A DNA stretch of 64,000 nucleotides from Trueperaceae bacterium (GCA_034520945.1 JAXHNB010000010.1:209942-273941); one strand, 5' to 3'; positions 22,838 to 52,166 are shown, counted from the first letter of the stretch. A program made the numbers and translations. Notes: generated by a model from the sequence alone, not told the origin.

Positions 22838-23803
22838 GTGATCACGCACGCGCCCGACGCCCGCGAACTCGCCGGCTACGAACGCCTGCTCGCCCTCCTG
22901 TTCGCCAAGGAGCCGGACGACGAGCTTCGCGCGCTCATGGCGGGGATCCCCGAACTCGCGGCGTACGCCACGCCCGAGGCCGCCGGGCGCCATACGCACG
23001 TGCTGGTGCTGAACGCCTACCCGTTCGCGTCGGTGTACCTGGACGAGGGAGGCGCGCTGCACGGACGCCGGGCCGCCTTCACGCGCGACGTGTTGCGGGC
23101 GCTCGGCCTTCAGGTGGAGGGGCGCGAGGGCATGGCCGCCGATCACGTCTCCGTGGCGCTCGACGCGCTGGTCGCGTTGCTCGAGCGCGAGGCCGACGCC
23201 GCAGGTCCGCTCGAGGCCCGCCGCGCTCGGCACGCCCAACGCACGGTGTTGGCCGAACACCTGCTCCCGTGGGCCCCATCGTTCCTCGGCGCCGTCCAGC
23301 GCGTCGACGAAGGGGGACTCTACGGCGCCGCGGCCGGTTTGGCGCGGAAGACCCTCGTGCAGCACGCGCGTCGCCTCGATGAGGCGAGCACGGGCGAAGC
23401 GCCGGCGCCGACGCCCACCACACGCGCCGACGCGGCCACCGACGAAGCGGAGGAGCCGGGCGAGAACGGCGCCGTGGCGTGGTTGGCCTCGCCCGCCCGC
23501 TGCGGGATGTTCCTGAGCCGGCACGACCTGGCCGTGCTTGGCGCGTCCGCTGGCATTCCCACCCGCATCGGAGGCCGCCGCTTCGTCCTCGAGGCCATGG
23601 TGCGCGCCGCGCACGAAGAGGCCGAGGCAACGGCATTGACCCGTGCGCTGTCGGCGTTCGCCTCGGCGCGCCGCGCCGAACTTCAGGCCTGGATGGACGA
23701 GGCCCCCGCCTACGCAGGAGCCTGGCGGCCGTGGCTGGCGACGCTGGACGCGACGCGAATGCGGCTCGAGGAGGGCGTTCTGGACGGTGCCGGTTCGCTG
23801 TGA
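22838..23803 (+). CDS. TorD/DmsD family molybdoenzyme maturation chaperone
   Basis: PFASVYL, ADHVSVAL, EHLLPW motifs; last gene of the operon. Confidence 0.8.
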   Translation: MITHAPDARELAGYERLLALLFAKEPDDELRALMAGIPELAAYATPEAAGRHTHVLVLNAYPFASVYLDEGGALHGRRAAFTRDVLRALGLQVEGREGMAADHVSVALDALVALLEREADAAGPLEARRARHAQRTVLAEHLLPWAPSFLGAVQRVDEGGLYGAAAGLARKTLVQHARRLDEASTGEAPAPTPTTRADAATDEAEEPGENGAVAWLASPARCGMFLSRHDLAVLGASAGIPTRIGGRRFVLEAMVRAAHEEAEATALTRALSAFASARRAELQAWMDEAPAYAGAWRPWLATLDATRMRLEEGVLDGAGSL

Positions 23804-23828
23804 CGGCTCGTGGCGCCTGCGGCTCGCC

Positions 23829-26800
23829 CTACGCGTTCCGGCGCACCGTGATGGTGCTGCCGACGTCCTGCGGCTCGACCAGCACCTGCGTGGGGATGCG
23901 GCGCTTCAGCTCGGCCACGTGGGTGATCACGCCGACCATGCGGTTCTCGGCGTGCGGCAGGTGCCGCAGGATGTCGACGGCCTTCTCGAGCGCGACCTCG
24001 TCCAGGCTGCCGAAGCCCTCGTCCACGAACAGGGCCCCTAGCTCCACCCCGCCGCTGTAGCGCTGCGCGCACTCGCTGAGGCCCAACGCCAGCGCGAGCG
24101 CGGCGAGGAACCCTTCGCCGCCGCTGAGGGTCTTGGCGGGCCGGCGGCCGCCGCCGGCATGATGGTCGGCGACCTCGAGCTCCAGGCCGCGGTTGCTGCC
24201 GCGCGTCTCGTCCCGGACCAGGTGCAGGGCGTAGCGGCCGCCGGTCATGCGGTGCAGGTGGGCGTTGCCGACGGCGAGCACCTCGCCGAAGATGGACTGC
24301 AGCACGAAGGTCTCGAAGTCGATCTTGGCGCGGCCGGTGAGCCTGCCGCCGGCGAGGTTGGCGAGGTTCTGGGTCGCCTCCAGGCGTTGGCGGCTGCGTT
24401 CGTACGCCTTCTCGGCCGCCTCCAGCTTCTCCAGGGTGGCCTCGAGGGTGGTCGCCGCCTGGGTGGCACGGTGCAGCGCCGCGTCCGCTTCCTCCCAGGC
24501 GCGCTGCGCTTCGTTCTTGGCCGCCTGCAGCGCCTCCAGGTCGGGGGGCGCTTGGTCGGCCAGCTCCTGGCGCAACGTCTCCACCTGTGTGCGCGCCTTC
24601 TGGAGCTCCGCGTCGAAGGTGCGGAGGTCCTCCTGGCGCCGCTGCAACTCGCCTGGGTCCATCGCGGCGGCCGCGAGCTCGTCCTCGCCTGCGAACCCGC
24701 AGGCGTGCAGTCGCTGTCGCAGGTCGGCCTCCGCCTGCTCCAGGTGGGCGCGGGCCGTGGAGAGCACCTCGTCGCGCTCCTTCAGGGTGGCCGCCGCCGT
24801 CTCCTGCTCGGTGGCGGCCGTGGCGTGCGCCTCCTTCGCCGCCTCCAGGGCGGCATTCCGTTCGTCGAGCCGCGCACGTCGCTCCCGCAACCGGGCGTGG
24901 AACGCGTCGGGTTGGTGCAGCTCCTCGGGCAGTTGGTTCAGCACCTCGCGAATGCGCTCGTCCAGGTTCTCGATGTGCTGGCGGCGACGCGCCAACTCGG
25001 TGCGCGCCTCGGCCAGGCGCGTCTGCTGCCGCTCTCGCTCCTGCGTGATCTCGTGCAGCTCGCCGTCGATCTCGGTGAGGCGGTTCTTGGCGCCCTCGGC
25101 CTGTTCGCGGCGTGCGCGCGTGTCGTTGAGCGAGGTCTCGAGCTGGTCGCGGGAGGGGCGTTCGGCGTCGTCCCAGTCGTGCTCGGCGAGGACCGTCTCC
25201 TGCCGCTTGCGCACCTCGTCCGCTTGCGTCTGCAGCGTGGCCAGCTCGTGGCGGGTCCGTTCGTATTGCTCCAGTATGGCGCGGAGCGCGTCGGCGTCCA
25301 CCGTGTCGTGCGGGTGGGGGTGCTCGGTGCTGCCGCAGACGGGGCAGGGCGCGCCTGGTGCCAGGTCCGCGGCCGCGAGGCCGGCGGCGTGATGGCGCAC
25401 CACCTCCAGCAGTGTGGCGCCGTGCCCCTGCACCAGCTCGTCGGGGACGCGTTCGAGCTCCCGCTGGCGCCCGTCGATGTCCGCTCTGGCGCCGGTCGAG
25501 CTCGTCGAGTTCGCGCGCCGCCTTCGTGCGCACGCCCAGGCGATCTTCCTCTTTGCGGAGCCGGTCGAGGTCGTGCGCCAGCGGCGTGATGCCCGCGCGC
25601 TCTTCGTCCAGCGTCGTCCTGCGCCGGTCCAGTTCGCCGAGTGCCTGCTGCGCCTCCCGTTCGGTCGCCGCGAGCCGGGACACCGCCGCTTCCTCTTCGC
25701 CACGTTCGGTGCGCGCCTTATCGAGCCGCGCCACGCGTTCTTCGAGACCGGCCAGGTGCTGGATCTCCCGTTCCAGCGCCGGCCGCTCGGCGCTGCGGGC
25801 CTCCTCGCCGTCGAGCGCCTGCTTGGCCTTCTCGACCTGGGCCCGGGCCGTCTCCGCGGCGTCCCATGCCTCCTTCTGCCGTGCCGTCGCCCGCTCGAGC
25901 GCCTTGCGGGCATGGTCGCGTGCCTCCCGCCGGTCGGCGACCTTGGCGGCCTGTTCGGCCGACCGTAGCCGCTCGCGCTCCTTTTCCATCGCTTCGGTTC
26001 GTTGCTGCAGCTCGTCCAACTCGGTTTGCCGCGCCGTGAGCGCCTCGAAACGTTCCTGCAGTGTGCCCGCCGCCTCCAACGCGGTGGTGGCTTGGGCGAG
26101 GGTCTCCTGTCGCGCCTTGCGCGTGGCGGTTGCCTCCTCGCGCCGGGCACGCGCCGCCTCGAGCTGGGTCACCAGTTGGTCGCGGTTGTCTGCCCCCGCC
26201 TCGCCCAGCAGCTCGCGGCGCCGGTCCTGCAGGTGATCGGCTTCGTCGGAGAGGCGCTTGGCTTGATCCTTGAGCTTGCGGGTGAGGGCCGCGAAGCGGC
26301 CGGTGTCGAACACGCGGGCCAGCACCTCGCGGCGGCCCTCGTCGTCGGTGACGACCTCGCGGAACTGGCCCTGCGGCAGCACCACCGTCTGGCGGAACTG
26401 TTCGGCGGTGCAGCCCAGCAGCGCCTCGATCTGCTCGCTGACGGCCCGCGCCTTGTCGGCCAGCGTTTCGACGGGCTCGCGCCCCGCGTCCAGGCGCTCC
26501 AGCAGGGCCTCGGCGGGCGCGTCGCGCAGCCCCTCGCCGCGGAGCTTGGCGCGGCGTTGCGCGGGGCTGCGGGTGACGCGGTAGGCCTCGCCGTGCACCT
26601 GGAACTCGAACACGACCCTGCTCAGGGCACCCTCGTCCAGGGTGGAGACGAACTCGGCGCCGCTGCGCTCGACCTTCTTGGTGTCGAACAGCGCGTAGGT
26701 CATGGCGTCCAGAAGCGTGCTCTTGCCCGAGCCGGTGGGGCCGTGGATGAGGAACAAACCGGCGCTGCCGACCCGTTCGAAGTCGACCTCCTGGGGGTCC

Positions 26801-26844
26801 AGGAAGGGGCCGAACGCCTCCAGGCGAAGTCGGAGCGGCCTCAC
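23829..26844 (-). pseudogene. sbcC: SbcC (Rad50-like SMC ATPase) interrupted by an apparent 1-nt insertion near 25488 (pseudogene or sequencing error)
   Basis: N-part has GPTGSGKST Walker A and LPQGQF. C-part in the shifted frame has CPVCG zinc hook, LSGGE and FVDEGFGSLD. Frames join at CTCGACCGGCGC-C-AGAGCGGAC. Confidence 0.85.
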
Positions 26845-28187
26845 GGCGAGGTCTCCCCTTCCGCCTCGGACCGCCCGCTCACGCCTTCTCGGGGGTTCGG
26901 TTCGCTCTCATTGACCTCGTCGCCTGGCTCGTCGTCCTGCGCCAGCACCTCGTGCAGCACCTCGCGCTCCAGATCGCTGGGATCGCTGCCGAACACGTGC
27001 CGGTAGAAGCTCAGGAAGGCGTCGCCGGCGCGCATGGTGCGGGTGTTGCCTGTCAGCGGGGTCGCCTCGTCCTGCGCGATGATCGCCGGCTGCTCCAGCA
27101 GGGCGTGGGGGTGCACCTCCCGCAGGCGCCGCAGGGCGTTGTCGATCGGCTGGCGGTCGGTGACGGTGATCCACAGGTAGTCGTCGGGGTCGCCGTGCGC
27201 TTCTGCCGCGGCCGCGTCCGGCTGCGCTGCGGCTTCCTCGCCCGCCTCACGCGCCTGCTTGGCGCGGCGGGCCGCTTCGCCGTGGGCGATGACCTCGTCG
27301 AAGCTGACGTCGCTCACCATGCGGACCTTGCGCCGCACCGGTAGGGGCGCCTGGCGGATCTCGATGCCGCCCGCGTCGGCACCTGCCGAAGCGGGAACGT
27401 CGATCAGCGTCACGCTCTTGTCGCCGGGCTCGTCGAAGGCGTAGGGGTACAGGCCCCCGGCGTAGCGAAGCGGCGTCGAGCCGGTGAGGGTACGGGGCGT
27501 GTGGAGGTGCCCGAGGGCGACGTAGGCGAAGCCTTGAAAGCAGTCCGGCCGCACGCCGCCCGCGCCGCCGACCATCAGGGCGTCCTCGCCGTCGGACTCC
27601 TCTCCGCCGCCCTCCACGAAGGCGTGCGCAAGGGCGATGGCGGGCACGCCGGGGGTGCGCTGCGCCCGGGCGCGGTCCAGCAGTGCCGCCATGGCGGCGT
27701 GGTAGTCGAAGTCGCCGAGCGGCCCGGACGCGTCCTCGGTCGTGTCCGCGTCGCCATCGTCCTCGGCGTTGCGCCACGACCGCACGTGCGCCGGCTTGTG
27801 GAACGGCACGCCGAACACGTCCACGCCGGCGATGCGGACGGGCCGGTCCACCGTAGCGAGCTGATTCAGGACGTGCAGCCCGGCGGTGCGAGCCATGCGG
27901 GCGTTCATGGCCAGCCGCTCGGCGTGGTCGTGATTGCCGGGGATCACCACCAGCGGCACGCCGCGGCGCGCCACGATCCGTTCCGCCGCCCATTCCCACA
28001 GTTGCAGGGCCCGCACGGGCGGGATGGGCGCGTCGAACACGTCACCGGCCAGCAGCACGGCGTCGGGCCGTTCGGCGTCGACGACGTCGAGAAGCCGTTC
28101 CAGCGCCTCGCGTTGCTCGTCGATCAGCCAGAAGTCGTGCAACCGCTTGCCGAGGTGCCAGTCGGCGGTGTGCAGAAAGGTGGGCAC
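26841..28187 (-). CDS. sbcD: SbcD (Mre11-like) exonuclease
   Basis: LHTADWHLG, AGDVFD, IPGNHD, LAHAF, ALGHLH; AGGAGG precedes GTG. Confidence 0.93.
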   Translation of the reverse strand: MPTFLHTADWHLGKRLHDFWLIDEQREALERLLDVVDAERPDAVLLAGDVFDAPIPPVRALQLWEWAAERIVARRGVPLVVIPGNHDHAERLAMNARMARTAGLHVLNQLATVDRPVRIAGVDVFGVPFHKPAHVRSWRNAEDDGDADTTEDASGPLGDFDYHAAMAALLDRARAQRTPGVPAIALAHAFVEGGGEESDGEDALMVGGAGGVRPDCFQGFAYVALGHLHTPRTLTGSTPLRYAGGLYPYAFDEPGDKSVTLIDVPASAGADAGGIEIRQAPLPVRRKVRMVSDVSFDEVIAHGEAARRAKQAREAGEEAAAQPDAAAAEAHGDPDDYLWITVTDRQPIDNALRRLREVHPHALLEQPAIIAQDEATPLTGNTRTMRAGDAFLSFYRHVFGSDPSDLEREVLHEVLAQDDEPGDEVNESEPNPREGVSGRSEAEGETSP

Positions 28188-41069: not shown

Positions 41070-42968
41070 TCAACCCTTCTCGACCGTAGGGAACGCGGCC
41101 ACCCGCAGGTTTGTCGCGCCGTACGGAACGAGGCGCACCGACGCGGCCGGTCCGCGCTCGGTCTCGGGTCGCTCCGGTACGGGCGCGGCGGCGTTGTGCT
41201 CCAACCCCCACGAAGGCACCCGGCGCGCCCTGACCTGCGCGTGGACAGGCGCGCCAGCAGGCGAGAAGGGATGACTCGTGACGGCTTCTTCGCGAAAGTC
41301 GATCGAATCTTCGGGAGCGGGACCTAGCTCCAGAGCGTAGTTCCACGCGCTAGCGGGGTATACCTCCCAGTCCTGGTGCGGCGCCTCGCCGCCGATGGTC
41401 CGCCAGTCCTCCTCGATTTCGAGGGCGAAGAGGACCGGTCCCCGGTGGATCGAGACGCTGTTGTGATAGCCGCGTTCGATCCGTGTCCTCATCGGAAGAT
41501 GCAGTGTGACACCGGTCCCCGTGCGCTCGCCCAGAACTACCCGCGTGTAGCGGCCGGGCTCGACGGTTACGTCTGCGCCAGCGATGCTCGCTCCCTCTGC
41601 CCAACCCGGCACTCGGATGTCGACGGGCACCTCGACGGGGCGCTCGCTGCGCACGGAGATGCGTACGTCTTGCTCGAACGGGTAGGCGGTCTCGATCATG
41701 AGGGTGACCTCGACGCCGTCGATCTTTGCCGTCGCCTCGCACGGGGCGAGGGCCGTGATGGCGAAGCCGCCATGGTGGTTCCTCATCACGAGATGGTTCG
41801 CGAACTTGGGCCAACCTTGGTGAAAGTTGGCGGTGCAACAACCGAAGTTGGGCTCAAGCCCGAAAATGTTTGAGTGGGGTCCGTTCGTGGTGTAGACGTT
41901 GTCCTCTGCAACCCGGCATAGCACTTGGTTCACCTGCTGGTCGTACTGATGTGCCCACATGTCAGGGCTCATCGTCGCCGGAAGCGCGTTGAACGCCACG
42001 CGCTCCAGGCGGTCGCCCAGCAAGGGATCGCCGACGGTCTCGGCGAGCACCTCGAGCGAATACATGAACTCGACGACGGCGCACAGCTCCGTGCCTTGGC
42101 TCGGATTCAAGCCCGCGAGGTGCTCGTCTCCGGAGAACATGCCATTCGCTTGTCCGTGGTAGCGGTCGAGCACGGCGAGGATCCGTCGGTGCGCCTCACG
42201 ATCCTCCAGGCGCCCCGACTGACGCCACCAGACCCCCGCCGCCTTGAGCGCCATCGCGTTGTTCACGACGTGCGTGCGTAGGTCGCACTCCTCACGCCGG
42301 GAGCGGTAGCGGTAGGGGAAGCGCTCGTAGTGCTCCCGCCAGGCGAAACCCTGCTCGTGCAGCTTCGCCGCCGTCTCGAGCAAAGCAGTGTCGCCAGTGC
42401 GTTCGTAGAGCCATTGCAGGCTGATCACCATGTCCGCCCAGCGATAGCGGGCCCAGGAACGGAGATGCTCGGAGTCGAGCAGGGCGTCGAGGCGCCCGGC
42501 GAAGCGCGCGAGCGCAGGCACGACCCGTTCGTCCCCCGTCGCTTCCTGGTATTGCGTGAGCGCCTTGGCGACGATGAATACGGGCCACGGATCGTGCGGG
42601 TACCCGTAGTGGGCGTCGTGCACCGGTCCAAGCCACCCATTGTCGTGCTGCGCGCTCAGAATACAGTCTACCCAGTGCGAGACCTTATCCTTCAGCGTCG
42701 CATCGTCCAATAGGAACGCGAGCGGCACGGTGCCGTCGAGCCAGTACGGCCCGCGCTCCCACCCCTCGGCGTCCCCGCCGATCCAGCGGCTCTGGGCGAC
42801 GTCGGGCCAAAACTCGTCGAGGTGGCCCGTCAAACCGTCCGCCTGCCGCTCAAGCTGACGAAGTAGCCAGCCGCGGGGTCGGATCGCTCCCGGGGCGAGA
42901 CGACTGAATGCGGTCGGTGCTAGCCCTAAGTCTTTTTTGTCCACGGAATTCCTTTCTGCCGGCGTCAT
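41070..42968 (-). CDS. Glycoside hydrolase family 127 (beta-L-arabinofuranosidase-like)
   Basis: GAIRPRGWL, GWERGPYWLDG, HVVN, GDEH, ELCAVVE, CCTAN, LVPYGA. Start is ATG 42968 (ATGA overlap) or GTG 42944. Confidence 0.85.
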   Translation of the reverse strand: MTPAERNSVDKKDLGLAPTAFSRLAPGAIRPRGWLLRQLERQADGLTGHLDEFWPDVAQSRWIGGDAEGWERGPYWLDGTVPLAFLLDDATLKDKVSHWVDCILSAQHDNGWLGPVHDAHYGYPHDPWPVFIVAKALTQYQEATGDERVVPALARFAGRLDALLDSEHLRSWARYRWADMVISLQWLYERTGDTALLETAAKLHEQGFAWREHYERFPYRYRSRREECDLRTHVVNNAMALKAAGVWWRQSGRLEDREAHRRILAVLDRYHGQANGMFSGDEHLAGLNPSQGTELCAVVEFMYSLEVLAETVGDPLLGDRLERVAFNALPATMSPDMWAHQYDQQVNQVLCRVAEDNVYTTNGPHSNIFGLEPNFGCCTANFHQGWPKFANHLVMRNHHGGFAITALAPCEATAKIDGVEVTLMIETAYPFEQDVRISVRSERPVEVPVDIRVPGWAEGASIAGADVTVEPGRYTRVVLGERTGTGVTLHLPMRTRIERGYHNSVSIHRGPVLFALEIEEDWRTIGGEAPHQDWEVYPASAWNYALELGPAPEDSIDFREEAVTSHPFSPAGAPVHAQVRARRVPSWGLEHNAAAPVPERPETERGPAASVRLVPYGATNLRVAAFPTVEKG

Positions 42969-43804
42969 CCCTTGACAGCTCCGCCCGTCACGCCGCTGAT
43001 GAAGTACCTCTGGAGAAACAGGAAAACGATCATGATGGGAATGAAGCTGATGATGGCGCCCGACGTCAGGTACTCCCAGTTGGTCGTGTACCGGCCGGTG
43101 GCCAACTGCCGCAGGCCCACCGTCAGCAGCTTCATGCTCTCGTCGGTCGTGAACACTAGGGCGATGAGGAACTCGTTCCACGTGATGTAGAGGCTGTAGA
43201 TCACCGTCGTCACCACGCCCGGCAGCACCAGCGGGAGCATGACCCGTCCCGCCACGACCAGTTCGGAGGCACCGTCGAGGAGGGCGGACTCTCGGAGCGA
43301 GACGGGTACTGTGGCGAAGGCATTGCGCATCATGAAGACGCCGAACGGAAGCTGAAAGGTCGTGTAGATGATGATGAGCCCGGCGTAGGTGTTGAGCAGA
43401 CCCAGGGTTCGAACGAGCTGGAACAGCGGTACGAGGAGCGCCTGGAACGGGATCAACATTGCAGCGACGATCGCGACAAAGAGAAATTCCTTCGCCCGGA
43501 ACCGAAGGACCGCAAAGCCGTATCCGGCGAGGACGCTCACGAGGGCAACCAAACCAGCAGTCCCGACGCTGACGATTACGCTGTTGAGGAAGTATCGACG
43601 GAAGATGCCCTCACGCACCGTCCAGATGTCGAGATAGTTCGTGAGCGTCGCGTCTGAGGGAAGGAGCGTCGGTGGGTACACCATGATGTCGCCAGGGTGC
43701 TTGAGCGACGTGCTGACAGCCCACACCAACGGGGCGAGGAACAGGATCGCCAGGAGCACGTGGAGAAGATACAGCGGAAGGTTCTTGGCGCGCGTTCGCA
43801 GCAC
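42965..43804 (-). CDS. Carbohydrate ABC permease (MalG-like)
   Basis: FLNSVIVS, AGYGFA, LRESALLDGAS (EAA loop), WNEF, FISGVTGGAVKG. Confidence 0.92.
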   Translation of the reverse strand: MLRTRAKNLPLYLLHVLLAILFLAPLVWAVSTSLKHPGDIMVYPPTLLPSDATLTNYLDIWTVREGIFRRYFLNSVIVSVGTAGLVALVSVLAGYGFAVLRFRAKEFLFVAIVAAMLIPFQALLVPLFQLVRTLGLLNTYAGLIIIYTTFQLPFGVFMMRNAFATVPVSLRESALLDGASELVVAGRVMLPLVLPGVVTTVIYSLYITWNEFLIALVFTTDESMKLLTVGLRQLATGRYTTNWEYLTSGAIISFIPIMIVFLFLQRYFISGVTGGAVKG

Positions 43805-46195: not shown

Positions 46196-46852
46196 TCATG
46201 TCAACAGAGGCCCATCGTGAACAGATGGGCCACTGGGATCTGGCGCAGCGTTGGACGCCGAATCGGTGAAGAACTGCAGGAGCGTGCCCTCGCTACCGTA
46301 GATCTCTGTCGACGGGCCGCCGGCTCGCCACGCCCACCCCGACGCCAGCTCGACGATCACACCCCCCGGGAAACGAAACAGCATCACGCCAGTGTCCTCG
46401 ACAGGGAGGTCGGTGTGAACACCGCCGACCTCGGCCACGACGCTTTCCGGCTCGCCGAAGTAGTGACGCAGGAGGTCCATCTCGTGGACGCCCTCGTCAA
46501 GGAGCGCCCCTCCACCCGCGCGCTCCGGATCGACGATCCACGGCATGTCCAAGGCGAGGCGCGCCAGCGCAAAGCCGTGACCGTGCCGCTTGCGAACCAT
46601 GCCGATCGGTCCCAGCTCGCCGGCGTCGAGGATCTGCTTGACGGTGCGATTGCTAGGGATCAGCCGCTGCGGGAACGACTGGACGCAGGTGATGCCCGCC
46701 TCCTCGACCTGGCGAATAATCGCCGGCAGGTCGTCCGAAACGGCAGCGGGCGGCTTCTCGATCATCAGGTCACCTTTCGCATCGGCGACGCGTCGGACGA
46801 GGTCGGGCTTGTCGCCGTTGGCGCAGCAGAGCGCGAACGCGGCGCACTGCAC
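46196..46852 (-). pseudogene. Gfo/Idh/MocA oxidoreductase remnant (no N-terminal Rossmann motif, truncated C-terminus)
   Basis: IEKP, GELG, GGGALLDEGVHEMD, VEDTG and EIYGSEG are present. GxGxxG is absent and the frame begins directly after the stop of the XRE gene. Confidence 0.7.
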
Positions 46853-46860
46853 TACGAGGA

Positions 46861-47196
46861 TCAGGGCTCGACTGCTTCGCCGTCGCGAATCAGTGCACCG
46901 AGATCGAGCTCCACGTCCCCATCATCGAAACATGCACGAATCTCGAGCCGGCCACCCAGCGCCTCGACGTACCGTCGCAGCGTGCTGAGATGCATGTCTT
47001 GCTGATGCTCGATCTTGCTGACGCTGGATTGACGCAGGCCCATCAGCAGTACGAGCGCCTGCTGCGTGACGTTCCGGTCCTTGCGCAGGGCCTGGAGAAG
47101 TTCGTACTCCGCAGCCAGCGCCTGGGCCTGTCGTTCGATCCCATCACGTCGCTTCGGGGGAAGGGCATCGGTCAACTCTCGAAAATGCTTCGTCAT
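46861..47196 (-). CDS. XRE-family HTH antitoxin (HigA-like), orphaned
   Basis: LQALRKDRNVTQ...QSSVSKIE...LSTLRRYVEALGGRLEI; GGAGG RBS. Confidence 0.85.
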   Translation of the reverse strand: MTKHFRELTDALPPKRRDGIERQAQALAAEYELLQALRKDRNVTQQALVLLMGLRQSSVSKIEHQQDMHLSTLRRYVEALGGRLEIRACFDDGDVELDLGALIRDGEAVEP

Positions 47197-47312
47197 TCGC
47201 CTTCCTCCATCTCGCGAAGGTGCCGAGCGAACCGTGCCTCCGCCCGCGGAATCGCGCGTGCGTACCAACGGCGGCTGGAAGCCTTGTCGCCTGCGACGAT
47301 CATAACGGCACG
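47193..47312 (-). pseudogene. 3' remnant of a RelE/HigB (Gp49-like) toxin
   Basis: Translates as RAVMIVAGDKASSRRWYARAIPRAEARFARHLREMEEGE*, with its stop overlapping the antitoxin ATG. The 5' two-thirds are missing. Confidence 0.7.
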
Positions 47313-47996
47313 CGCCGCAGCGCGCCCCAGCCCGACCCGGTGGTGGGCTGCATCGTGCTGACCGATCCGTTCTTCTTCCCGCCAGGCGCGTGGATCGACC
47401 CACCGCGCGACTGGCCGCGCAACACGGTGCAGGGCAAGCGCTACGACCTGACCGAAGGCGAGGGCGCGCGCGTGTGGGCGCAGGTGCAGGAACGCCTACG
47501 GGCCCACCCCCCGTCCGCGGCCGGCGACGAGGTGCCGGCCCTGCTCGGGTCGCGCGAGGAACGCTGGGCCCGCATCCGGGCGCGATTGGGGCAGGGCGGC
47601 TTCCGCGCCAGCGTCACCGACGCCTACCGCTACCGCTGCGCCATCACCGGCGAGCGGACGCTGCCGGTCCTGGAGGCGGCCCATATCAGGCCGCATGCCC
47701 TTCGCGGACCCAACGACGTGCGCAACGGCCTGCTGCTGCGCTCCGACCTGCACATATTGTTCGACCGCGGCTACCTCACGGTGGATCCGCAGCACCGCGT
47801 GCACGTCAGCCGCCGCATCCGGGAGGAGTTCGAGAACGGCCGCGAGTACTACCGCTTCGACGGCGCTCCGCTGGCGAACCTGCCGCGCCCGGCGGGCGAG
47901 CGGCCCGAGCGTACCTACCTGACGTGGCACAACGAGCACGTGTTCGAGGCCGGCGCGGAACGGGCCGAAGGCCGACACATGGGTGGCGAGACGTGA
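47310..47996 (+). pseudogene. HNH endonuclease (putative restriction type), 5'-truncated
   Basis: DPVVGCIVLTDPFFF...RLGQGGFRASVTDAY...CAITG...LEAAHI...NGLLLRSDLHILFDRG...WHNEHVF. No credible start or RBS, and the sequence upstream of ~47310 is the toxin remnant on the other strand. Confidence 0.75.
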
Positions 47997-49142
47997 CCAC
48001 GGGGCCCTCCGGCACCGAGGCGGGCCACCGCATCGTCAGCACCGTCCTGCGGCACGACCGCAAGGTCAACAGCTACAAGATCGCCCTGTTGCGGGCACTG
48101 AACGACGTGGTACTGGCCTACCCGGACCTGCGGCACGAGGGGCGCGACGTGGCCGTGCCGCTGCGGCTTCTGGCCGAATCGTGGGTCGCGTACTACTGGC
48201 CATTCGTAGCGACGAAAGACGAGATCCTGCAGGGTCCACGGTCGCAGCGCCGCAGCGGACTGGCGCACGACATGGGCTTCCGCCCGCACCTGCGCGAGCT
48301 GCGCATCGCGTGGGAGCGCATTCACGGGCCCTCCGGCGCGGCCGGCGGCTGGCTGCTGGTGGAGCACCTGCGGGTCCCCCGCACCCGCGCCGGCTACGAC
48401 GCGCGCTTCGTGAAGCAGTACCGTGGCACCCTCAGGCGCATCGGCACCAACCTACGGCAGCCGCTGCGCTACGCCGGTGAGGGCGAATGGTCGCTGTTCG
48501 CCAAGCCTCGGCGCCTCCGTGAAATGACGGACGTGGTCGCCGTGCCGGGAACGGGACCGACCGAGGCCTGCACCCTCGTCCCGCCGGGCTTGTGGCGCGC
48601 CTTCCGTGACGTCTCGTTGTGGGTGGAGGCGCTGGCGATCCACGAGTGGAGCCTGCTCACCGAACGCGTCGGCGGGGTGTCGCGCGGCCGCGCCTACGAA
48701 CTGCTGACCGAACGGCCCGACAACCGCCTGCCCCTCAGCTGGGAACGCAACGGCGTGGAACTGCTCATGCGCGAGGGGCACGCGTTCACCTGCCCCTGGA
48801 CGGGCCGGCGGCTGACGCCCGCGCGCTACCAGCTGGATCACGTGGTGCCGGTCGCCGTCCACCCGTTCCACGAGTTGTGGAACCTGGTGCCGGCCGATCC
48901 GCACTTCAACATGCACCGCAAGCGCGACCGCCTGCCCGGCGCCGCGGCGTTGGCGGGCGCCACGCCGCACCTCGGCGTCGACCTACGGCGCGTACGAGGC
49001 TTCTCCCGCCCTGGCGGCGCCGCTGCGCGAGGACGTGCGCCTGCGCTTCGCGCGCACCGCGGCCGAACCGCGCGCGATCGCCGCCGCGGTCACCGATCTG
49101 GTCGAGAACATCGCGTCGCTCCGCAACCTGGCGCGCTTCTGA
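47993..49142 (+). CDS. HNH-domain protein with helical N-terminal domain; apparent 1-nt insertion at ~48974
   Basis: KVNSYKIALLRAL, YYWPF, CPWTG, LDHVVP, WNLVPA...N..KRDRLP. Removing one G at CTCGGCG gives a normal end ...ENIASLRNLARF* at 49142. GTGA-coupled to the upstream HNH. Confidence 0.75.
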
Positions 49143-49165
49143 CGCGCGTCGGAGGGAGGACCTGC

Positions 49166-49492
49166 GTGCGCACCCGTCACGACAAGCTCATCCGCGACCG
49201 TATCCCCGAGATCATGGACGCCGAGGGCGTGCGCTACGAGACCCGGCGCCTGGACGACGCCGCGTACCGCCGGGCCCTCCGCGCGAAGTTGGTGGAGGAA
49301 GCCCAGGAGGCCGCGGCCGCCGACACGCCCGACGCCCTCCGAACCGAACTGGCGGACCTGTTGGAGGTGGTTCGGCACCTGGCGACGACCGAAGGGCTGG
49401 AGGCGGAGGCCGTAGAGGCGACGCGGGCCGCGCGCCACCGGGCGCGTGGCGGCTTCGCGCGGCGGTTGTGGCTGCATTGGACGGAACGGTGA
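49166..49492 (+). CDS. All-alpha NTP pyrophosphatase (MazG superfamily)
   Basis: KLIRDRIPEI...KLVEEAQE...ELADLLEV...RGGF; GGAGGGAGGA precedes GTG 49166. Confidence 0.85.
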   Translation: MRTRHDKLIRDRIPEIMDAEGVRYETRRLDDAAYRRALRAKLVEEAQEAAAADTPDALRTELADLLEVVRHLATTEGLEAEAVEATRAARHRARGGFARRLWLHWTER

Positions 49493-49559
49493 GGTGCGAG
49501 GCCGATTCGCGCGAAGCACATCGCGCCGCCCTACGGCTTTCGTGAAGACGACCCCGCCC

Positions 49560-49610
49560 GTACGTACGTACGCGTGCATGCAACTACGCTTGCATGCACA
49601 CGCGTGTACA
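49560..49610. repeat. Nested palindromes / alternating purine-pyrimidine tracts
   Basis: GTACGTACGTAC; GTGCATGCAA-N6-TTGCATGCAC; ACACGCGTGT. Confidence 0.7.
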
Positions 49611-49910
49611 GGCAGTCGGCGGTTGCCTGGTACGGAGGCACGAAACATCGTGCGGATCTGCCCTCTCGACCTCCGCACCGCGGCCGGCAGGAGGTGGAGG
49701 GACGCGACCGCTTCCTCGGCCATGATCTCGAAGGGAGCCTCGATCGCGCCGGGAGTGTTGAGCACGGTCTGCCCGCCGGCCGCGAGGACCCGGTGCATCT
49801 CTTCGAGCGGGCCCTGTGTCTCGGCGCCCGACCTCACGATAGGGAGAGGCGACCGATGCCGCATCCGTGCACCACGGGGGACCGAACGAGTTCGTCGCGA
49901 ACGGGGCCCC

Positions 49911-50237
49911 TCAAAGGTCGAGATGCAAACGCAGCGCATCACCGACGCGCTGCATCACGCCTGTCGACAGACGCACGAGGGGAGCGCCGACCAGGCGGGT
50001 CTTGCTTATGGTGCGGACTTGGTTCGGTTGCACCTTGCACGGCCGGTCGAGCTCCGAGTCGAGGCGCACCTCGAATGGATAGACCCGCGCCACCTTGCTG
50101 GTGATCGGCAGAACCGTGAGGGTGCTGGCGGCTCGGTTGTTCGCATCGTTGGACACGATGAGGCAAGGCCTGCGCTTGTTCGCTTCACTGCCCACGCTCG
50201 GCTCGAGATCGGCGTAGTAGACATCACCCCGACGCAT
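49911..50237 (-). CDS. mazF: MazF/PemK family toxin
   Basis: MRRGDVYYADLEPSVGSEANKRRPCLIVSND...VLPITS...QVRTISKTRL; TAATG-coupled to the antitoxin. Confidence 0.93.
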   Translation of the reverse strand: MRRGDVYYADLEPSVGSEANKRRPCLIVSNDANNRAASTLTVLPITSKVARVYPFEVRLDSELDRPCKVQPNQVRTISKTRLVGAPLVRLSTGVMQRVGDALRLHLDL

Positions 50238-50461
50238 TACCAGGCGTCCTCGGACAGGCCGTCCGCCGTAGTGGGTTCCCATGCGGAGTCGACGTCGCGG
50301 GAGGCGTCCGCATAGGCTTGCTCGAGTTCCCGTTCGCGGAGCACCTTCAAGGCGCGCTCTACGACGCTGCTCTTGGTCCGCAGTTCATGCGCGTCCCGAT
50401 ACTCCTCGAGAAACCTCGCAAGGGAGGACGGAACCGAGACGCTGATCTTCTCCTGGCTCAT
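50237..50461 (-). CDS. Ribbon-helix-helix antitoxin of the MazF module
   Basis: KISVSVP...SSVVERAL...LEQAY...WEPTTADGL. Confidence 0.85.
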   Translation of the reverse strand: MSQEKISVSVPSSLARFLEEYRDAHELRTKSSVVERALKVLRERELEQAYADASRDVDSAWEPTTADGLSEDAW

Positions 50462-50472
50462 GCTCCACATCA

Positions 50473-50495
50473 TACTACAACGAGTAGTGTACTAC
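50473..50495. promoter_or_regulatory. Alternating ACTAC/GTAGT operator half-sites beside a TATGAT -10 element
   Basis: TACTAC-aacga-GTAGT-gt-ACTAC; minus-strand TATGAT lies 7 nt before the antitoxin ATG. Confidence 0.5.
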
Positions 50496-50690
50496 GTACG
50501 TCTTGTTAAGACCACGGCCGCCCATGGCTCCGCCGAAGGTGCTACCTTTGGCTCGAGCAGGCGCTGCCTGTCCCCGCCCACATCTGGACCAGCCTCGAAA
50601 AGGCGTATCGGCACGCTCTTGCCAGAGGGGATGCGTAAGCAAAGAACCACGACGAAATAAACCTGCTCGATGCCGCGCGCAGGCTTGGTC

Positions 50691-52166
50691 TCAGCCACCG
50701 TCTCCGTGCCGCTCCAGCAGGGCTTGGGCGTGCTCGGCGCGGCCGGTGGCGCGGAGCCTCTGGACGTACCGGTCGAGCTCTCCCCGCAGGTGGTGCGGGC
50801 CCCCTTCGGCCAGCACGACGTCCAGCGGATCGCGCTCGTGGTGCGAGGTGGCCAGCATCGCGTCCCGCCACTCGGTCAGGATGGCGTCGGCGCGCCGGCA
50901 CACGTCGGGTTCGGCTGTGGCGAGGTCGTGGGTCTGGTGCGGATCGGTCCGGACGTCGAACAGCATGGCGCCTGGCATCTGTTTGAAGCCGTCGTGGTAG
51001 GTGCGGATGTACAACCAGCGGTCGAACCGCACGCTGCGCTGGCAGCTCCACGCCATTTGGCTCAGGACGAGATGATCACGGAAGGGACCCTCTTCGTTCG
51101 GACCGGCGTCGCCCGCGAAGTCGGCCGCGAACGAGCGCCCGTCCCATTCGCGTGGCACCGTTCCGCCGGCGAGCTCGATGACGGTGGCGGCCAGGTCGAT
51201 CGGGTACAGCAGTCGCTCGTCGACCTGGCCGGCCGGCAGTCGCGCCGGCCAGCGCACGATCAGCGGCACGTGACACGTCGCCTCGTCGGCGGTTTGATGG
51301 TCGCCGTAGACGTTCAGCTCTCCCTGGCTCTCGCCGTGGTCGGCCGACACGATGATCATGGTGTCGTCGAGCACGCCGGCGGTTTCCAGGGTGCGCACCA
51401 CCTGCGCCAGGTGATCGTCGAGGTAGCGGATGCTGGTGTCGTACGCGTCGATCCAGGCTCCGAAGTCGTCCAGCGTGGCGATCTCCTGGGGCACCCATGG
51501 CAGTGGGCTGCGCCAGCCGAACCAGTACAGGCTTCCGTCTCGGGCGCTCATCGGCCCGTACCCTTCTCGGTGCCGGCGCAGCAGGTCTTCGTCGAGCCAG
51601 TCGGGCCCGGGTTCGCCTTCGAATCGGTTGCCGTACGAGTCGGGCGTGCGGTAGCGCGTGTGCGGGTCCCAGTAGTTGAGGTGCAAGAACCAGTCGGGCT
51701 CCGTGGCGTGCGCGGCGAGCCAGGGAAGCGCGAGTTCGTTGACCTCCTCGGCGCGTTCGTCGCCGCTCTTGCCGGGGTCGTGCCACTCGTGGAGGCCGGC
51801 CGTGAACCACGGTGCGCCGTGGCGCTCGGGGAACGAGCTGATCGACGCAGTGCGGTGTCCTACCTCGCGCAACGCCTGGAACCACGTCAACGCGTCGGGG
51901 TGACGGTTGAAGGTGCGCAACGCGGGTGCGATCCAGGGGTCGGCGGCTCCTCCGCCGTGATTCACCGCGCCGGTGTGGATACCGAAGCGTCCCGTGCTGA
52001 TCGCGGAGCGGGCCGCGAGGCAGGGCGCGTCGCTGGCGTAGCACGACGTGAACCGGACGCCGTGACGGGCCAGCCGGTCGAGGGTCGGCGAGGTCGCGCG
52101 CGGGTATCCGTAGCACCCGAGGTGGTCGGGCCGAAGGGCGTCGACGTCGATGTACACAATGCGCAT
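50691..52166 (-). CDS. Sulfatase (CxAxR variant)
   Basis: IDVDALRPDHLGCYGY, CLAARSAISTG, WDPH, SADHGE. Confidence 0.88.
   Translation of the reverse strand: MRIVYIDVDALRPDHLGCYGYPRATSPTLDRLARHGVRFTSCYASDAPCLAARSAISTGRFGIHTGAVNHGGGAADPWIAPALRTFNRHPDALTWFQALREVGHRTASISSFPERHGAPWFTAGLHEWHDPGKSGDERAEEVNELALPWLAAHATEPDWFLHLNYWDPHTRYRTPDSYGNRFEGEPGPDWLDEDLLRRHREGYGPMSARDGSLYWFGWRSPLPWVPQEIATLDDFGAWIDAYDTSIRYLDDHLAQVVRTLETAGVLDDTMIIVSADHGESQGELNVYGDHQTADEATCHVPLIVRWPARLPAGQVDERLLYPIDLAATVIELAGGTVPREWDGRSFAADFAGDAGPNEEGPFRDHLVLSQMAWSCQRSVRFDRWLYIRTYHDGFKQMPGAMLFDVRTDPHQTHDLATAEPDVCRRADAILTEWRDAMLATSHHERDPLDVVLAEGGPHHLRGELDRYVQRLRATGRAEHAQALLERHGDGG

Follow-up and report, generated by a model that had tools for sequence, protein, structure and literature searches.

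A winged-helix-like HNH_4 nuclease family that recurrently pairs with a MazG/HisE-type pyrophosphatase, met in a partly decayed islet of a Trueperaceae genome

Do two nuclease genes and a nucleotide pyrophosphatase gene that follow each other on one strand constitute a single anti-phage system? The question is raised by a 64,000-nt stretch of a Trueperaceae genome (GCA_034520945.1 JAXHNB010000010.1:209942-273941; hereafter the window, with positions counted from its first letter), in which three such genes, called here gene 1, gene 2 and gene 3, lie in tandem. The original prediction, based on this sequence, described them as co-oriented and tightly coupled through a GTGA overlap, and this arrangement is present: the GTG start of gene 2 (47993-47995) is placed on the TGA stop of gene 1 (47994-47996). 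Its domain calls were also right, i.e., a restriction-type HNH nuclease, a different HNH nuclease with a helical or winged-helix N-terminal domain (N-domain), and an all-alpha nucleoside triphosphate (NTP) pyrophosphatase. Its proposal of a three-gene system did not survive the comparison of gene neighborhoods. The trio is not a conserved unit; it occurs once, in the window, where two two-gene modules sharing gene 2 overlap. The region 46861-50473 is best read as a small, partly decayed islet, putatively of the defense type, that interrupts a sugar-utilization operon.

The neighborhoods were surveyed in the 80 best of 143 confirmed gene 2 loci from genomes. By tblastn, gene 3 was located directly downstream of gene 2 and on the same strand in 28 of the 80 loci (one degraded and one cut by a contig end). 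By profile, it was found in 26 of the 75 loci having at least 400 nt of downstream sequence, at a spacing of 2-31 nt where the start is unambiguous. Of 75 metagenome loci, 40 offered a complete gene 2 followed by 600 nt or more of sequence, and gene 3 was present in 16 of these. A gene 1 relative was present in none of the 28 genome loci that carry gene 3, and gene 3 was present in none of the five Deinococcales loci that carry gene 1.

The gene 2-gene 3 pair is spread over several phyla, with Trueperaceae, Deinococcus, Chloroflexota, Hymenobacter and cyanobacteria among its hosts. When the presence of gene 3 is traced on a tree of 74 gene 2 sequences, 10 changes are required, at least 5 of which are forced by well-supported branches, against an average of 22.6 changes when the labels are shuffled; thus, the pairing is old, and gains and losses have been frequent. 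The pairwise identities of genes 2 and 3 are correlated (r 0.79; 0 of 2000 permutations as high), a correlation that would also be expected from shared descent alone. Within the bacterial family of the window, a gene 2 match was obtained in 22 of 128 genomes and 11 of 36 genera (15 full-length, one cut by a contig end), and a strong gene 3 match in 20 of the 128 genomes. In 13 of these 20, gene 3 is next to a full gene 2; in three, it is next to a gene 2 remnant (L095, L097 and L098); in two, next to other genes (L093 and L094); and in one, at a contig start. In the last genome (L096), its neighbor is a 469-aa protein that combines an SYK motif with an HNH_4 domain and is matched by the gene 2 profile in the HNH domain only. 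In this family, gene 3 is seldom found other than behind gene 2. The predicted complex of the gene 2 and gene 3 products scored 0.00, which makes no call either way.

Two of the remnants come from different genera (L097:3408-3722 and L098:3343-3933, both on the minus strand) and retain only the first ~30 and the last ~45 residues of gene 2, directly upstream of an intact gene 3. At the L098 junction, a stretch of ~18 nt aligns to both sides of a ~0.9-kb deletion relative to the intact L003:5007-6131, which suggests that gene 2 is lost by recurrent deletion between imperfect direct repeats. Gene 2 pseudogenes are frequent. Pyrophosphatases of the gene 3 type that lie apart from gene 2 were observed at L093:3332-7262 (-), beside DUF429 and DUF2779 proteins, and at L094:2239-4038 (+), beside a PfkB kinase and a metallo-beta-lactamase-fold protein.

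The second module joins gene 1 to gene 2. We had considered gene 1 a mere neighbor, as it was co-oriented with gene 2 in 0 of the 80 surveyed genome loci; this was dropped once a Deinococcus plasmid and further genome loci were found. On that plasmid, a gene 1 relative (51% identical to P0127, a 320-aa relative of the window gene 1) overlaps the start of a broken gene 2. Among 26 Deinococcales gene 2 loci drawn from a sample of 301 genomes, a gene 1 relative lies directly upstream and on the same strand in five (three intact, one split and one a remnant), and at these junctions the stop and the start overlap or are 10 nt apart; with its stop codon at 2091-2093, gene 1 of L197 either runs into the gene 2 start or ends 10 nt short of it. 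The 301 genomes have 37 places with a near-full-length gene 2, and five of these show an HNH_2 domain within 400 nt upstream. The base rate of HNH_2 is 68 places in 61 of these genomes, which by a rough estimate would produce well below one such adjacency by chance. In a tree of 52 sequences, the window gene 1 groups with P0127, P0131 and P0141, and the Deinococcus copies form a separate clade; therefore, the gene 1-gene 2 junction arose at least twice within this sample.

Looser associations of gene 2 with HNH_2 genes were also found. A metagenome locus (L173) has a co-oriented HNH_2 fragment ahead of gene 2, and on an Azospirillum plasmid, a gene 2 relative fused to a methyltransferase is preceded, at a distance of two genes, by an HNH_2 gene. 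In Nostocales, HNH_2 genes occur near gene 2 in 12 of the 80 loci, on the opposite strand and with a different N-domain resembling a sulfur-binding domain (SBD). The Nostocales layout is fixed (L010, L051, L056, L061, L066, L077, L079 and L191, the latter at pCC7120delta 41129-42986): one strand carries the SBD-like HNH_2 gene and a 285-aa gene without a family match, and the diverging strand carries an open reading frame (ORF) of 79-85 aa, sometimes also one of ~151 aa, and then gene 2. These small ORFs gave no Pfam match.

Gene 2, the member common to both modules, belongs to a large family: of 8000 scored candidates, 819 are relatives at E ≤ 1e-3. They are typically 373-385 aa long and, where named, are called 'HNH endonuclease domain-containing protein'; many carry PF13395. 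In the window copy, the HNH_4 domain scores 18.6 bits, below the Pfam gathering score of 22. The same domain was matched at E ≤ 1e-3 in 16 of 18 relatives, which had been sampled through the N-domain and chosen for variety in length. The window copy retains residues D282, H283, N297 and N306, which do not vary among 17 sequences and align with the catalytic D-H and N positions of the Cas9 HNH domain. A sequence search of the PDB with the gene 2 profile returned the Cas9 HNH domain only, at E 0.07. NF045808, the model of the SBD-HNH enzymes, did not match gene 2, and across the 301 genomes it gave nothing above its cut-off and a single near-full-length match. With the N-domain alone as profile, 696 clusters were found at E ≤ 0.001 among 1.84 billion representatives, so that the family comprises at least 696 clusters at 50% identity; a search of the ESM Atlas with this domain retrieved unnamed clusters only. 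Relatives of gene 2 are found on 23 plasmid records, including pCC7120delta of Nostoc PCC 7120 and plasmids of Deinococcus, Leptolyngbya and Hymenobacter, among others; phage records gave no gene 2 match.

The structure of gene 2 was approached through an intact relative with 72% identity, whose model has a predicted local distance difference test score (pLDDT) of 81.5 and a predicted template-modeling score of 0.84. Foldseek found no match for this model in the PDB at E ≤ 1e-3. In an exhaustive structural alignment, the modeled N-domain (residues 1-231, ~230 aa) sits among winged-helix domains: it matches Cdc6 at Z 6.4, JetABC at Z 5.5, the SBD of ScoMcrA (5zmm/5zmn/5zmo) at Z 5.5-5.7 over 126-130 residues, and the SBDs of SprMcrA and Hga at Z 5.2 (7ccd) and 4.8 (8h0l), respectively; at such values (Z 4.8-6.4), the likeness may extend no further than a common arrangement. 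Overall, the SBD alignments cover 124-130 residues. The original prediction had asked whether both nucleases carry reader domains of the PUA, EVE, SRA or winged-helix kind; the modeled N-domain of a gene 1 relative is indeed ASCH/EVE-like and that of the gene 2 relative winged-helix-like, and for the latter no sequence link to a known reader was found in Pfam, NCBIfam or the ESM Atlas.

The N-domain and HNH_4 travel as one unit. All seven relatives of 549-727 aa among the 18 sampled carry a class-I methyltransferase domain ahead of the N-domain and HNH_4, and such fused relatives reside on Azospirillum, Sphingobium and other plasmids. The fusions are L189:4335-6152 (the Azospirillum plasmid), P0372, P0376, P0382, P0387, P0390, P0391 and P0392. 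Their methyltransferase domains are generic class-I S-adenosylmethionine-dependent types (Methyltransf_11/12/23/25, with weak TehB/TPMT matches); P0372 has an additional C-terminal Peptidase_S24 domain, and the Azospirillum copy has HNH_2 and HNH genes on both sides.

Gene 3 starts with a GTG at 49166 and ends at 49492. Its Pfam scores fall just below both cut-offs (PRA-PH, 21.2 against 21.3 bits; MazG, 19.3 against 22 bits), which indicates a place among the all-alpha NTP pyrophosphohydrolases (MazG/HisE) at the superfamily level only; we take the protein to be COG4997-like. The family profile retrieves HisE structures (2a7w, E 5e-4). In an alignment of 21 sequences, K7, R10, D11, E44, E45, E48, E61, D64 and E67 are invariant, and all are kept in the window copy; E44, E45, E48, E61 and D64 (plus E67) make up the EExxE...ExxD metal-binding pattern on the helical core. 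Plasmid records gave no gene 3 match at E ≤ 1e-6.

The beginning of gene 1 is missing. Its frame is open from 47220 to 47996, and similarity to full-length relatives begins only at ~47307-47313, as the original prediction had stated in calling the gene 5′-truncated. The gene call of the window is 213 aa long, and most of the 6327 relatives found at E ≤ 1e-3 among 8000 scored candidates have 300-320 aa; therefore, ~97 N-terminal residues are missing, and the alignment runs from residue ~98 of the relatives onward. The retained 3′ two-thirds, which contain no stops or frameshifts, are 78% identical to P0127 and include the HNH_2 domain (PF13391, 57.6 bits against a cut-off of 21). The predicted model of P0127 (pLDDT 83.1) matches VcaM4I (6yex) over the whole protein at E 1.5e-7, and its first ~145 residues match ASCH/EVE domains (5y6b, TMt 0.69, E 1e-4; 2eve). 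Searched against structures, the profile of the gene 1 family finds 6yex at E 5e-13 (nuclease half) and TagI at E 0.011. NF045808 scores gene 1 at 82.6 bits, against a cut-off of 180, over the nuclease half only (profile positions 162-283). The complete N-terminal reader of the PUA superfamily is absent from the window gene 1, and most strands of the domain have been lost. As judged from the P0127 model, gene 1 is the remnant of a PUA-superfamily-HNH enzyme of the VcaM4I type with its reader domain largely gone, and it is probably inactive after this loss.

Contigs from three runs (X1, X2 and X3) bear on the integrity of the locus; X1 and X2 possibly derive from the source sample of the window itself, and X3 from a relative of a different strain. 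The truncation of gene 1 is structural. One X2 contig bridges 47008-47342 without any difference from the window, and another leaves the window exactly at 47313, with a loose end encoding the N-terminal continuation seen in P0127; thus, an intact version of gene 1 coexists in the X2 data set. For gene 2, the original prediction of a frameshift is borne out in the window: the gene reads in one frame to ~48973, the conserved tail (...NLARF) follows one frame over and ends at a TGA at 49140-49142, and one extra base is therefore present. The gene call of the window is a 499-aa read-through of genes 2 and 3 (P0006), because the shifted frame stays open into gene 3. Nevertheless, one base, at 48973 or 48978, is absent from each of the three contigs that cover 48973-48978 (two of two in X1, one of one in X3; X2 has a gap at 48908-49031), so the frameshift may be an assembly error; apart from this single base, the window gene 2 is intact. 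A further base, at 49156-49163, is missing from all contigs of X1, X2 and X3; therefore, the window assembly contains at least one indel in disagreement with every run. This site lies at the putative Shine-Dalgarno element of gene 3, GGAGGGAGG, the exact run length of which is consequently uncertain. A ribosome-binding site 24 nt after the corrected gene 2 stop had been predicted; the GGAGGGAGG box is present, and the gap between the gene 2 stop and gene 3 measures 23 nt. Indels seen in X1 only (one base at 47156; two bases at 47507, in a C-run inside gene 1) were not found in X2, which marks X1 as error-prone. Either the window assembly or run X1 is indel-prone.

The features of the region are listed in Table 1. 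The islet is flanked by sugar ABC-transporter genes, which lie upstream (to the left) of the 46196-46852 ORF, and by sulfatase and GH38 mannosidase genes, which follow after 50690 on the right; from these flanks it follows that the islet interrupts a sugar operon. No N-terminal Rossmann domain was found in the 46196-46852 ORF, and no direct repeats marking the islet ends were found to flank it. Toxin-antitoxin loci had been predicted on both sides. A complete type II pair, made up of the PemK toxin gene and the small ORF overlapping it, is present on the downstream flank only. The upstream flank has a lone XRE-family gene, and no ORF for a toxin was found within the 110 nt before the gene 1 remnant. 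The small ORF at 50237-50473 had no match in Pfam or PADLOC. An Rfam scan of 46500-50800 returned nothing at E ≤ 0.1, and no consensus promoters or terminators were found at the locus. The palindrome at 49564-49614 has a G+C content below that of its surroundings and separates gene 3 from the convergent MazF gene; it was not called as an intrinsic terminator. Elsewhere in the window (23710-28187, -), a 1044-aa ORF with weak PADLOC matches of the LmuB/PbeC type (SMC-like ATPase) and a 448-aa ORF before it are probably an SbcCD-like pair rather than a defense system.

Table 1. Positions of the islet features in the window (HTH, helix-turn-helix)
Feature	Position	Strand	Observation
Gfo/Idh/MocA oxidoreductase gene, 5′-truncated, left islet edge	46196..46852	-	C-terminal domain only: PF22725, residues 69-191, E 4e-29
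Lone XRE-family HTH gene, antitoxin-like	46861..47196	-	HTH_37 E 2e-6; also HTH_19, HTH_3
Gene 1 remnant, PUA-like (ASCH/EVE fold, as modeled)-HNH_2 nuclease	47313..47996	+	HNH_2 E 1.2e-15
Gene 2, predicted winged-helix N-domain + HNH_4 nuclease + helical tail	47993..49142	+	Read across +1 frameshift
Extra base shifting the gene 2 frame	48970..48978	.	Frame change between ...ATPHL and conserved tail
Shine-Dalgarno-like GGAGGGAGG	49151..49159	+	6 nt before gene 3 start
Gene 3, intact 108-aa putative all-alpha NTP pyrophosphohydrolase (MazG/HisE superfamily)	49166..49492	+	PRA-PH E 3.9e-4; MazG E 1.4e-3
Imperfect palindrome, 20-nt arms, 6-nt loop	49564..49614	.	Two inverted repeats, downstream of gene 3
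MazF/PemK-type toxin gene	49911..50282	-	PemK_toxin E 1.5e-27
Small ORF overlapping MazF start, presumed antitoxin	50237..50473	-	Position and overlap only

The surroundings of gene 2 in other genomes are of the defense type, as had been expected for its homologs. Its direct neighbors include Endonuclease_NS, PLD, a NucS-like protein, an AAA_15/DUF3696 ATPase and Fic. In single loci, a NUDIX gene lies upstream of gene 2 with gene 3 also downstream (L040:4568-4987), a methyltransferase-HIT fusion lies downstream (L027:6180-7049), and a PLD-helicase-DUF3427 protein, which has the domain set of SauUSI, ends 12 nt before gene 2 (L049:2083-4980). PADLOC models were run at E ≤ 1e-5 on the first half of a list of larger neighbor ORFs, which amounts to 117 of 234 ORFs and 23 of 49 loci. 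Matches, many of them strong, were obtained for 25 of the 117 ORFs, in 13 of the 23 loci; they comprise type I/II methyltransferase and specificity subunits, AbiEii, NERD-UvrD, PDC-S11, PDC-S26, PDC-S29, an Avs1a/LmuA-like protein and SoFic. As a control, 2 of 40 window ORFs matched, both weakly. This difference points to a defense island around gene 2. The trio had not been recognized as a named system, and this holds as far as PADLOC-DB 2.0.0 extends: the database has no model that matches gene 2, the gene 2 tail or gene 3 at E ≤ 0.01, and gene 1 matched generic HNH models only (PDLC04132, E 5e-20). A literature search, covering papers without their supplements, turned up no account of the gene 2 family and none of its occurrence together with a MazG-like gene; the predicted MazG system of DefensePredictor might include it.

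Comparison with known systems suggests what the two modules may do. The gene 1 family shares the two-domain build of VcaM4I and of other PUA-superfamily (EVE/ASCH/SRA)-HNH enzymes. It differs in that the window copy lacks ~97 reader residues, in that the N-domain of the family is nearer to ASCH than to EVE, and in that gene 1 is coupled to a second nuclease gene in the window and in some Deinococcus, which is not reported for VcaM4I in the literature found. The SBD-HNH phosphorothioate-dependent enzymes (ScoMcrA, SprMcrA; NF045808) touch both genes: their SBDs are among the best structural matches of the modeled gene 2 N-domain, and their HNH half is matched by the nuclease half of gene 1, from which the SBD half is absent. 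In contrast, the nuclease of gene 2 is HNH_4 and not HNH_2, and generic winged helices match its N-domain equally well or better, as the Cdc6 value shows. According to an excerpt of PMC11037411, winged-helix-HNH and PUA-winged-helix-HNH proteins (HhiV4I, HtuIII) are type IV endonucleases dependent on N6-methyladenine. Gene 2 also appears to fuse a winged-helix domain to an HNH nuclease; the likeness is one of description, and those enzymes have 224-283 aa in the excerpt, against ~230 aa for the gene 2 N-domain alone. The arrangement of genes 2 and 3, a nuclease gene next to that of a small nucleotide pyrophosphohydrolase, resembles SauUSI, although gene 2 combines a putative winged helix with HNH_4 where SauUSI is a PLD-helicase, and gene 3 has the predicted all-alpha MazG/HisE fold where the SauUSI partner is a NUDIX protein. 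PMC3141236 records, for at least 60 SauUSI relatives, a link to a MutT/NUDIX gene, the function of which 'remains to be examined', and a passage of PMC7641849 also notes this link. Gene 3 shares with MazG and HisE the EExxE...ExxD pattern and the matches to HisE structures and to the PRA-PH and MazG models; it differs from them in its subthreshold Pfam scores and in a family-specific N-terminal K-L-x-R-D-x-x-P motif.

Our preferred reading, to which we assign a probability of about 0.45, is that of a decayed islet that would couple modification-sensing nucleases to a nucleotide-pool sanitizer. The original prediction of pool sanitizing combined with cleavage of modified DNA is thereby kept as plausible by analogy, with its parts assigned to two modules. 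In the first module, gene 1, with the PUA-like/HNH_2 architecture of VcaM4I, would be translationally coupled to gene 2; in the second, gene 2 would be served by a dedicated small pyrophosphatase encoded 2-31 nt downstream. Gene 2, and gene 1 where intact, would cut foreign DNA, most likely modified DNA, recognized through their N-terminal readers; we infer this restriction through a reader for gene 1 from the VcaM4I architecture and for gene 2 from the winged-helix-HNH type IV enzymes. Gene 3 would hydrolyze non-canonical deoxynucleoside triphosphates (dNTPs). It might in this way deny them to phages that build modified genomes, or it might keep salvaged modified nucleotides out of the host chromosome and so spare the host from its own nucleases; type IV restriction enzymes endanger their owner if the host DNA gains the mark they read. 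What the comparisons establish is the anatomy of the genes, the preservation of catalytic residues in both nucleases and in the pyrophosphatase, the operon-like coupling, the recurrence of both pairs and their often decayed, accessory surroundings of the defense type; the anti-phage role, the specificity for modified DNA and the substrate of gene 3 are proposals that we infer. A sanitizer is favored because gene 3 keeps its enzyme residues, appears replaceable by other nucleotide hydrolases and is not obligatory.

Several observations weigh against this reading. The structural matches of the gene 2 N-domain are middling (Z 5.2-6.4) and shared with generic winged helices (Cdc6/ORC), and hhalign of the gene 2 profile with nine SBD-like HNH_2 proteins gave a probability of 0.17%; to call gene 2 modification-dependent is a guess by analogy. 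Reader domains of type IV enzymes are often shuffled among effector types, and the gene 2 N-domain occurs only with HNH_4 (in 16 of the 18 sampled relatives) and is not shuffled in this manner. Gene 3 is dispensable: about two-thirds of the gene 2 loci lack it, and the tree requires 5-10 gains or losses. It also persists beside deleted copies of gene 2 and beside unrelated genes (DUF429/DUF2779, PfkB). As the trio was seen once, cooperation among all three genes is without support. Finally, the control for the defense context is crude, since it consists of one window of one genome.

The same observations admit other explanations. If the nuclease of gene 2 were toxic, with gene 3 serving to regulate or neutralize it or else acting as a second effector that depletes canonical dNTPs in abortive infection, gene 2 should often be found broken next to an intact gene 3, as expected for a costly gene. 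This is indeed what was seen (gene 2 is internally deleted in L097 and L098, lacks its 5′ part through a deletion in L095 and is interrupted by stops or frameshifts in L192/G139 and G223:C50), and the tight operon spacing, the co-inheritance of the two genes, the MazEF pair and the lone antitoxin-like gene of the islet fit as well; in an excerpt of PMC13092281, MazG is listed among predicted, unvalidated defense domains. Nevertheless, about two-thirds of the intact gene 2 copies have no gene 3, and a partner that is not obligatory argues against an antidote; gene 3 keeps every catalytic residue, which fits an enzyme better than a mere binder, and no trigger or sensor for depletion is evident. 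We consider such a suicide module rather unlikely. A restriction-modification-like scheme, in which accessory enzymes make or handle a self-mark and gene 2 cuts unmarked DNA, would account for the methyltransferase in all seven of the longest sampled relatives, for the plasmid location of such genes and for the methyltransferase-HIT fusion after gene 2 in L027. It is improbable: those methyltransferase domains match small-molecule families and not DNA methyltransferase families, most loci, the window included, lack a methyltransferase, and a pyrophosphatase of 108 aa cannot by itself place a mark on DNA.

A role in DNA damage, with gene 2 processing damaged DNA and gene 3 clearing oxidized or damaged dNTPs in the manner of MutT, would explain why the family abounds in groups that tolerate radiation and desiccation, most hosts being Deinococcus, Trueperaceae, Hymenobacter, Chloroflexota or filamentous cyanobacteria, and would fit the presence of house-cleaning folds of the NUDIX and MazG types among the partners. 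However, the patchy distribution within genera, the settings on plasmids and among integrases and transposases, the decay and the neighbors that match defense models are untypical of repair genes. Moreover, a radiation/desiccation-response operator motif was absent upstream of gene 2 in 31 Deinococcota loci and in the window, its three loose matches lying elsewhere, and we give this explanation little credence. It is equally hard to hold that the genes are independent accessory genes clustered in variable islands. The single occurrence of the trio, the highly varied neighbors of gene 2 and the islet itself, a patchwork of a truncated host gene, a lone antitoxin-like gene and a truncated gene 1, would be expected of such clustering. 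Against it, both pairs recur in distant lineages in a fixed order, on the same strand and at overlapping or 2-31-nt spacing; in one family, 16 of 20 strong gene 3 copies lie beside gene 2 or its remnant; and HNH_2 precedes 5 of 37 gene 2 copies although the 301 genomes have only 68 HNH_2 places. The absence of functional coupling is already disfavored for both pairs.

A broader version of the preferred reading, that of modification-sensing nucleases coupled to a pool sanitizer, can be put forward more tentatively and is, on balance, doubtful: the winged-helix and HNH_4 family might be the core of an undescribed, widespread anti-phage system with interchangeable nucleotide-acting helpers. The helper would most often be MazG-like and otherwise a NUDIX, HIT or fused methyltransferase protein, and a second nuclease, an HNH_2 enzyme of the PUA or SBD type, would have been recruited repeatedly. 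Such a helper would keep modified nucleotides out of the host chromosome, which would also explain the link between SauUSI and NUDIX genes.

It is this pattern at the level of the family, and not the window locus, a decaying islet with a one-off trio, that is of interest. For SauUSI, a conserved link between a modification-dependent nuclease and a small nucleotide pyrophosphatase has been on record since 2011 and is still unexplained. Genes 2 and 3 add another instance, structurally unrelated to the first, present in several phyla and with a helper that appears swappable (MazG-like, NUDIX, HIT or methyltransferase). If the helper sanitizes the nucleotide pool, this would amount to a general principle by which modification-dependent immunity spares its own host, and a large unnamed nuclease family would join the defense catalogue.

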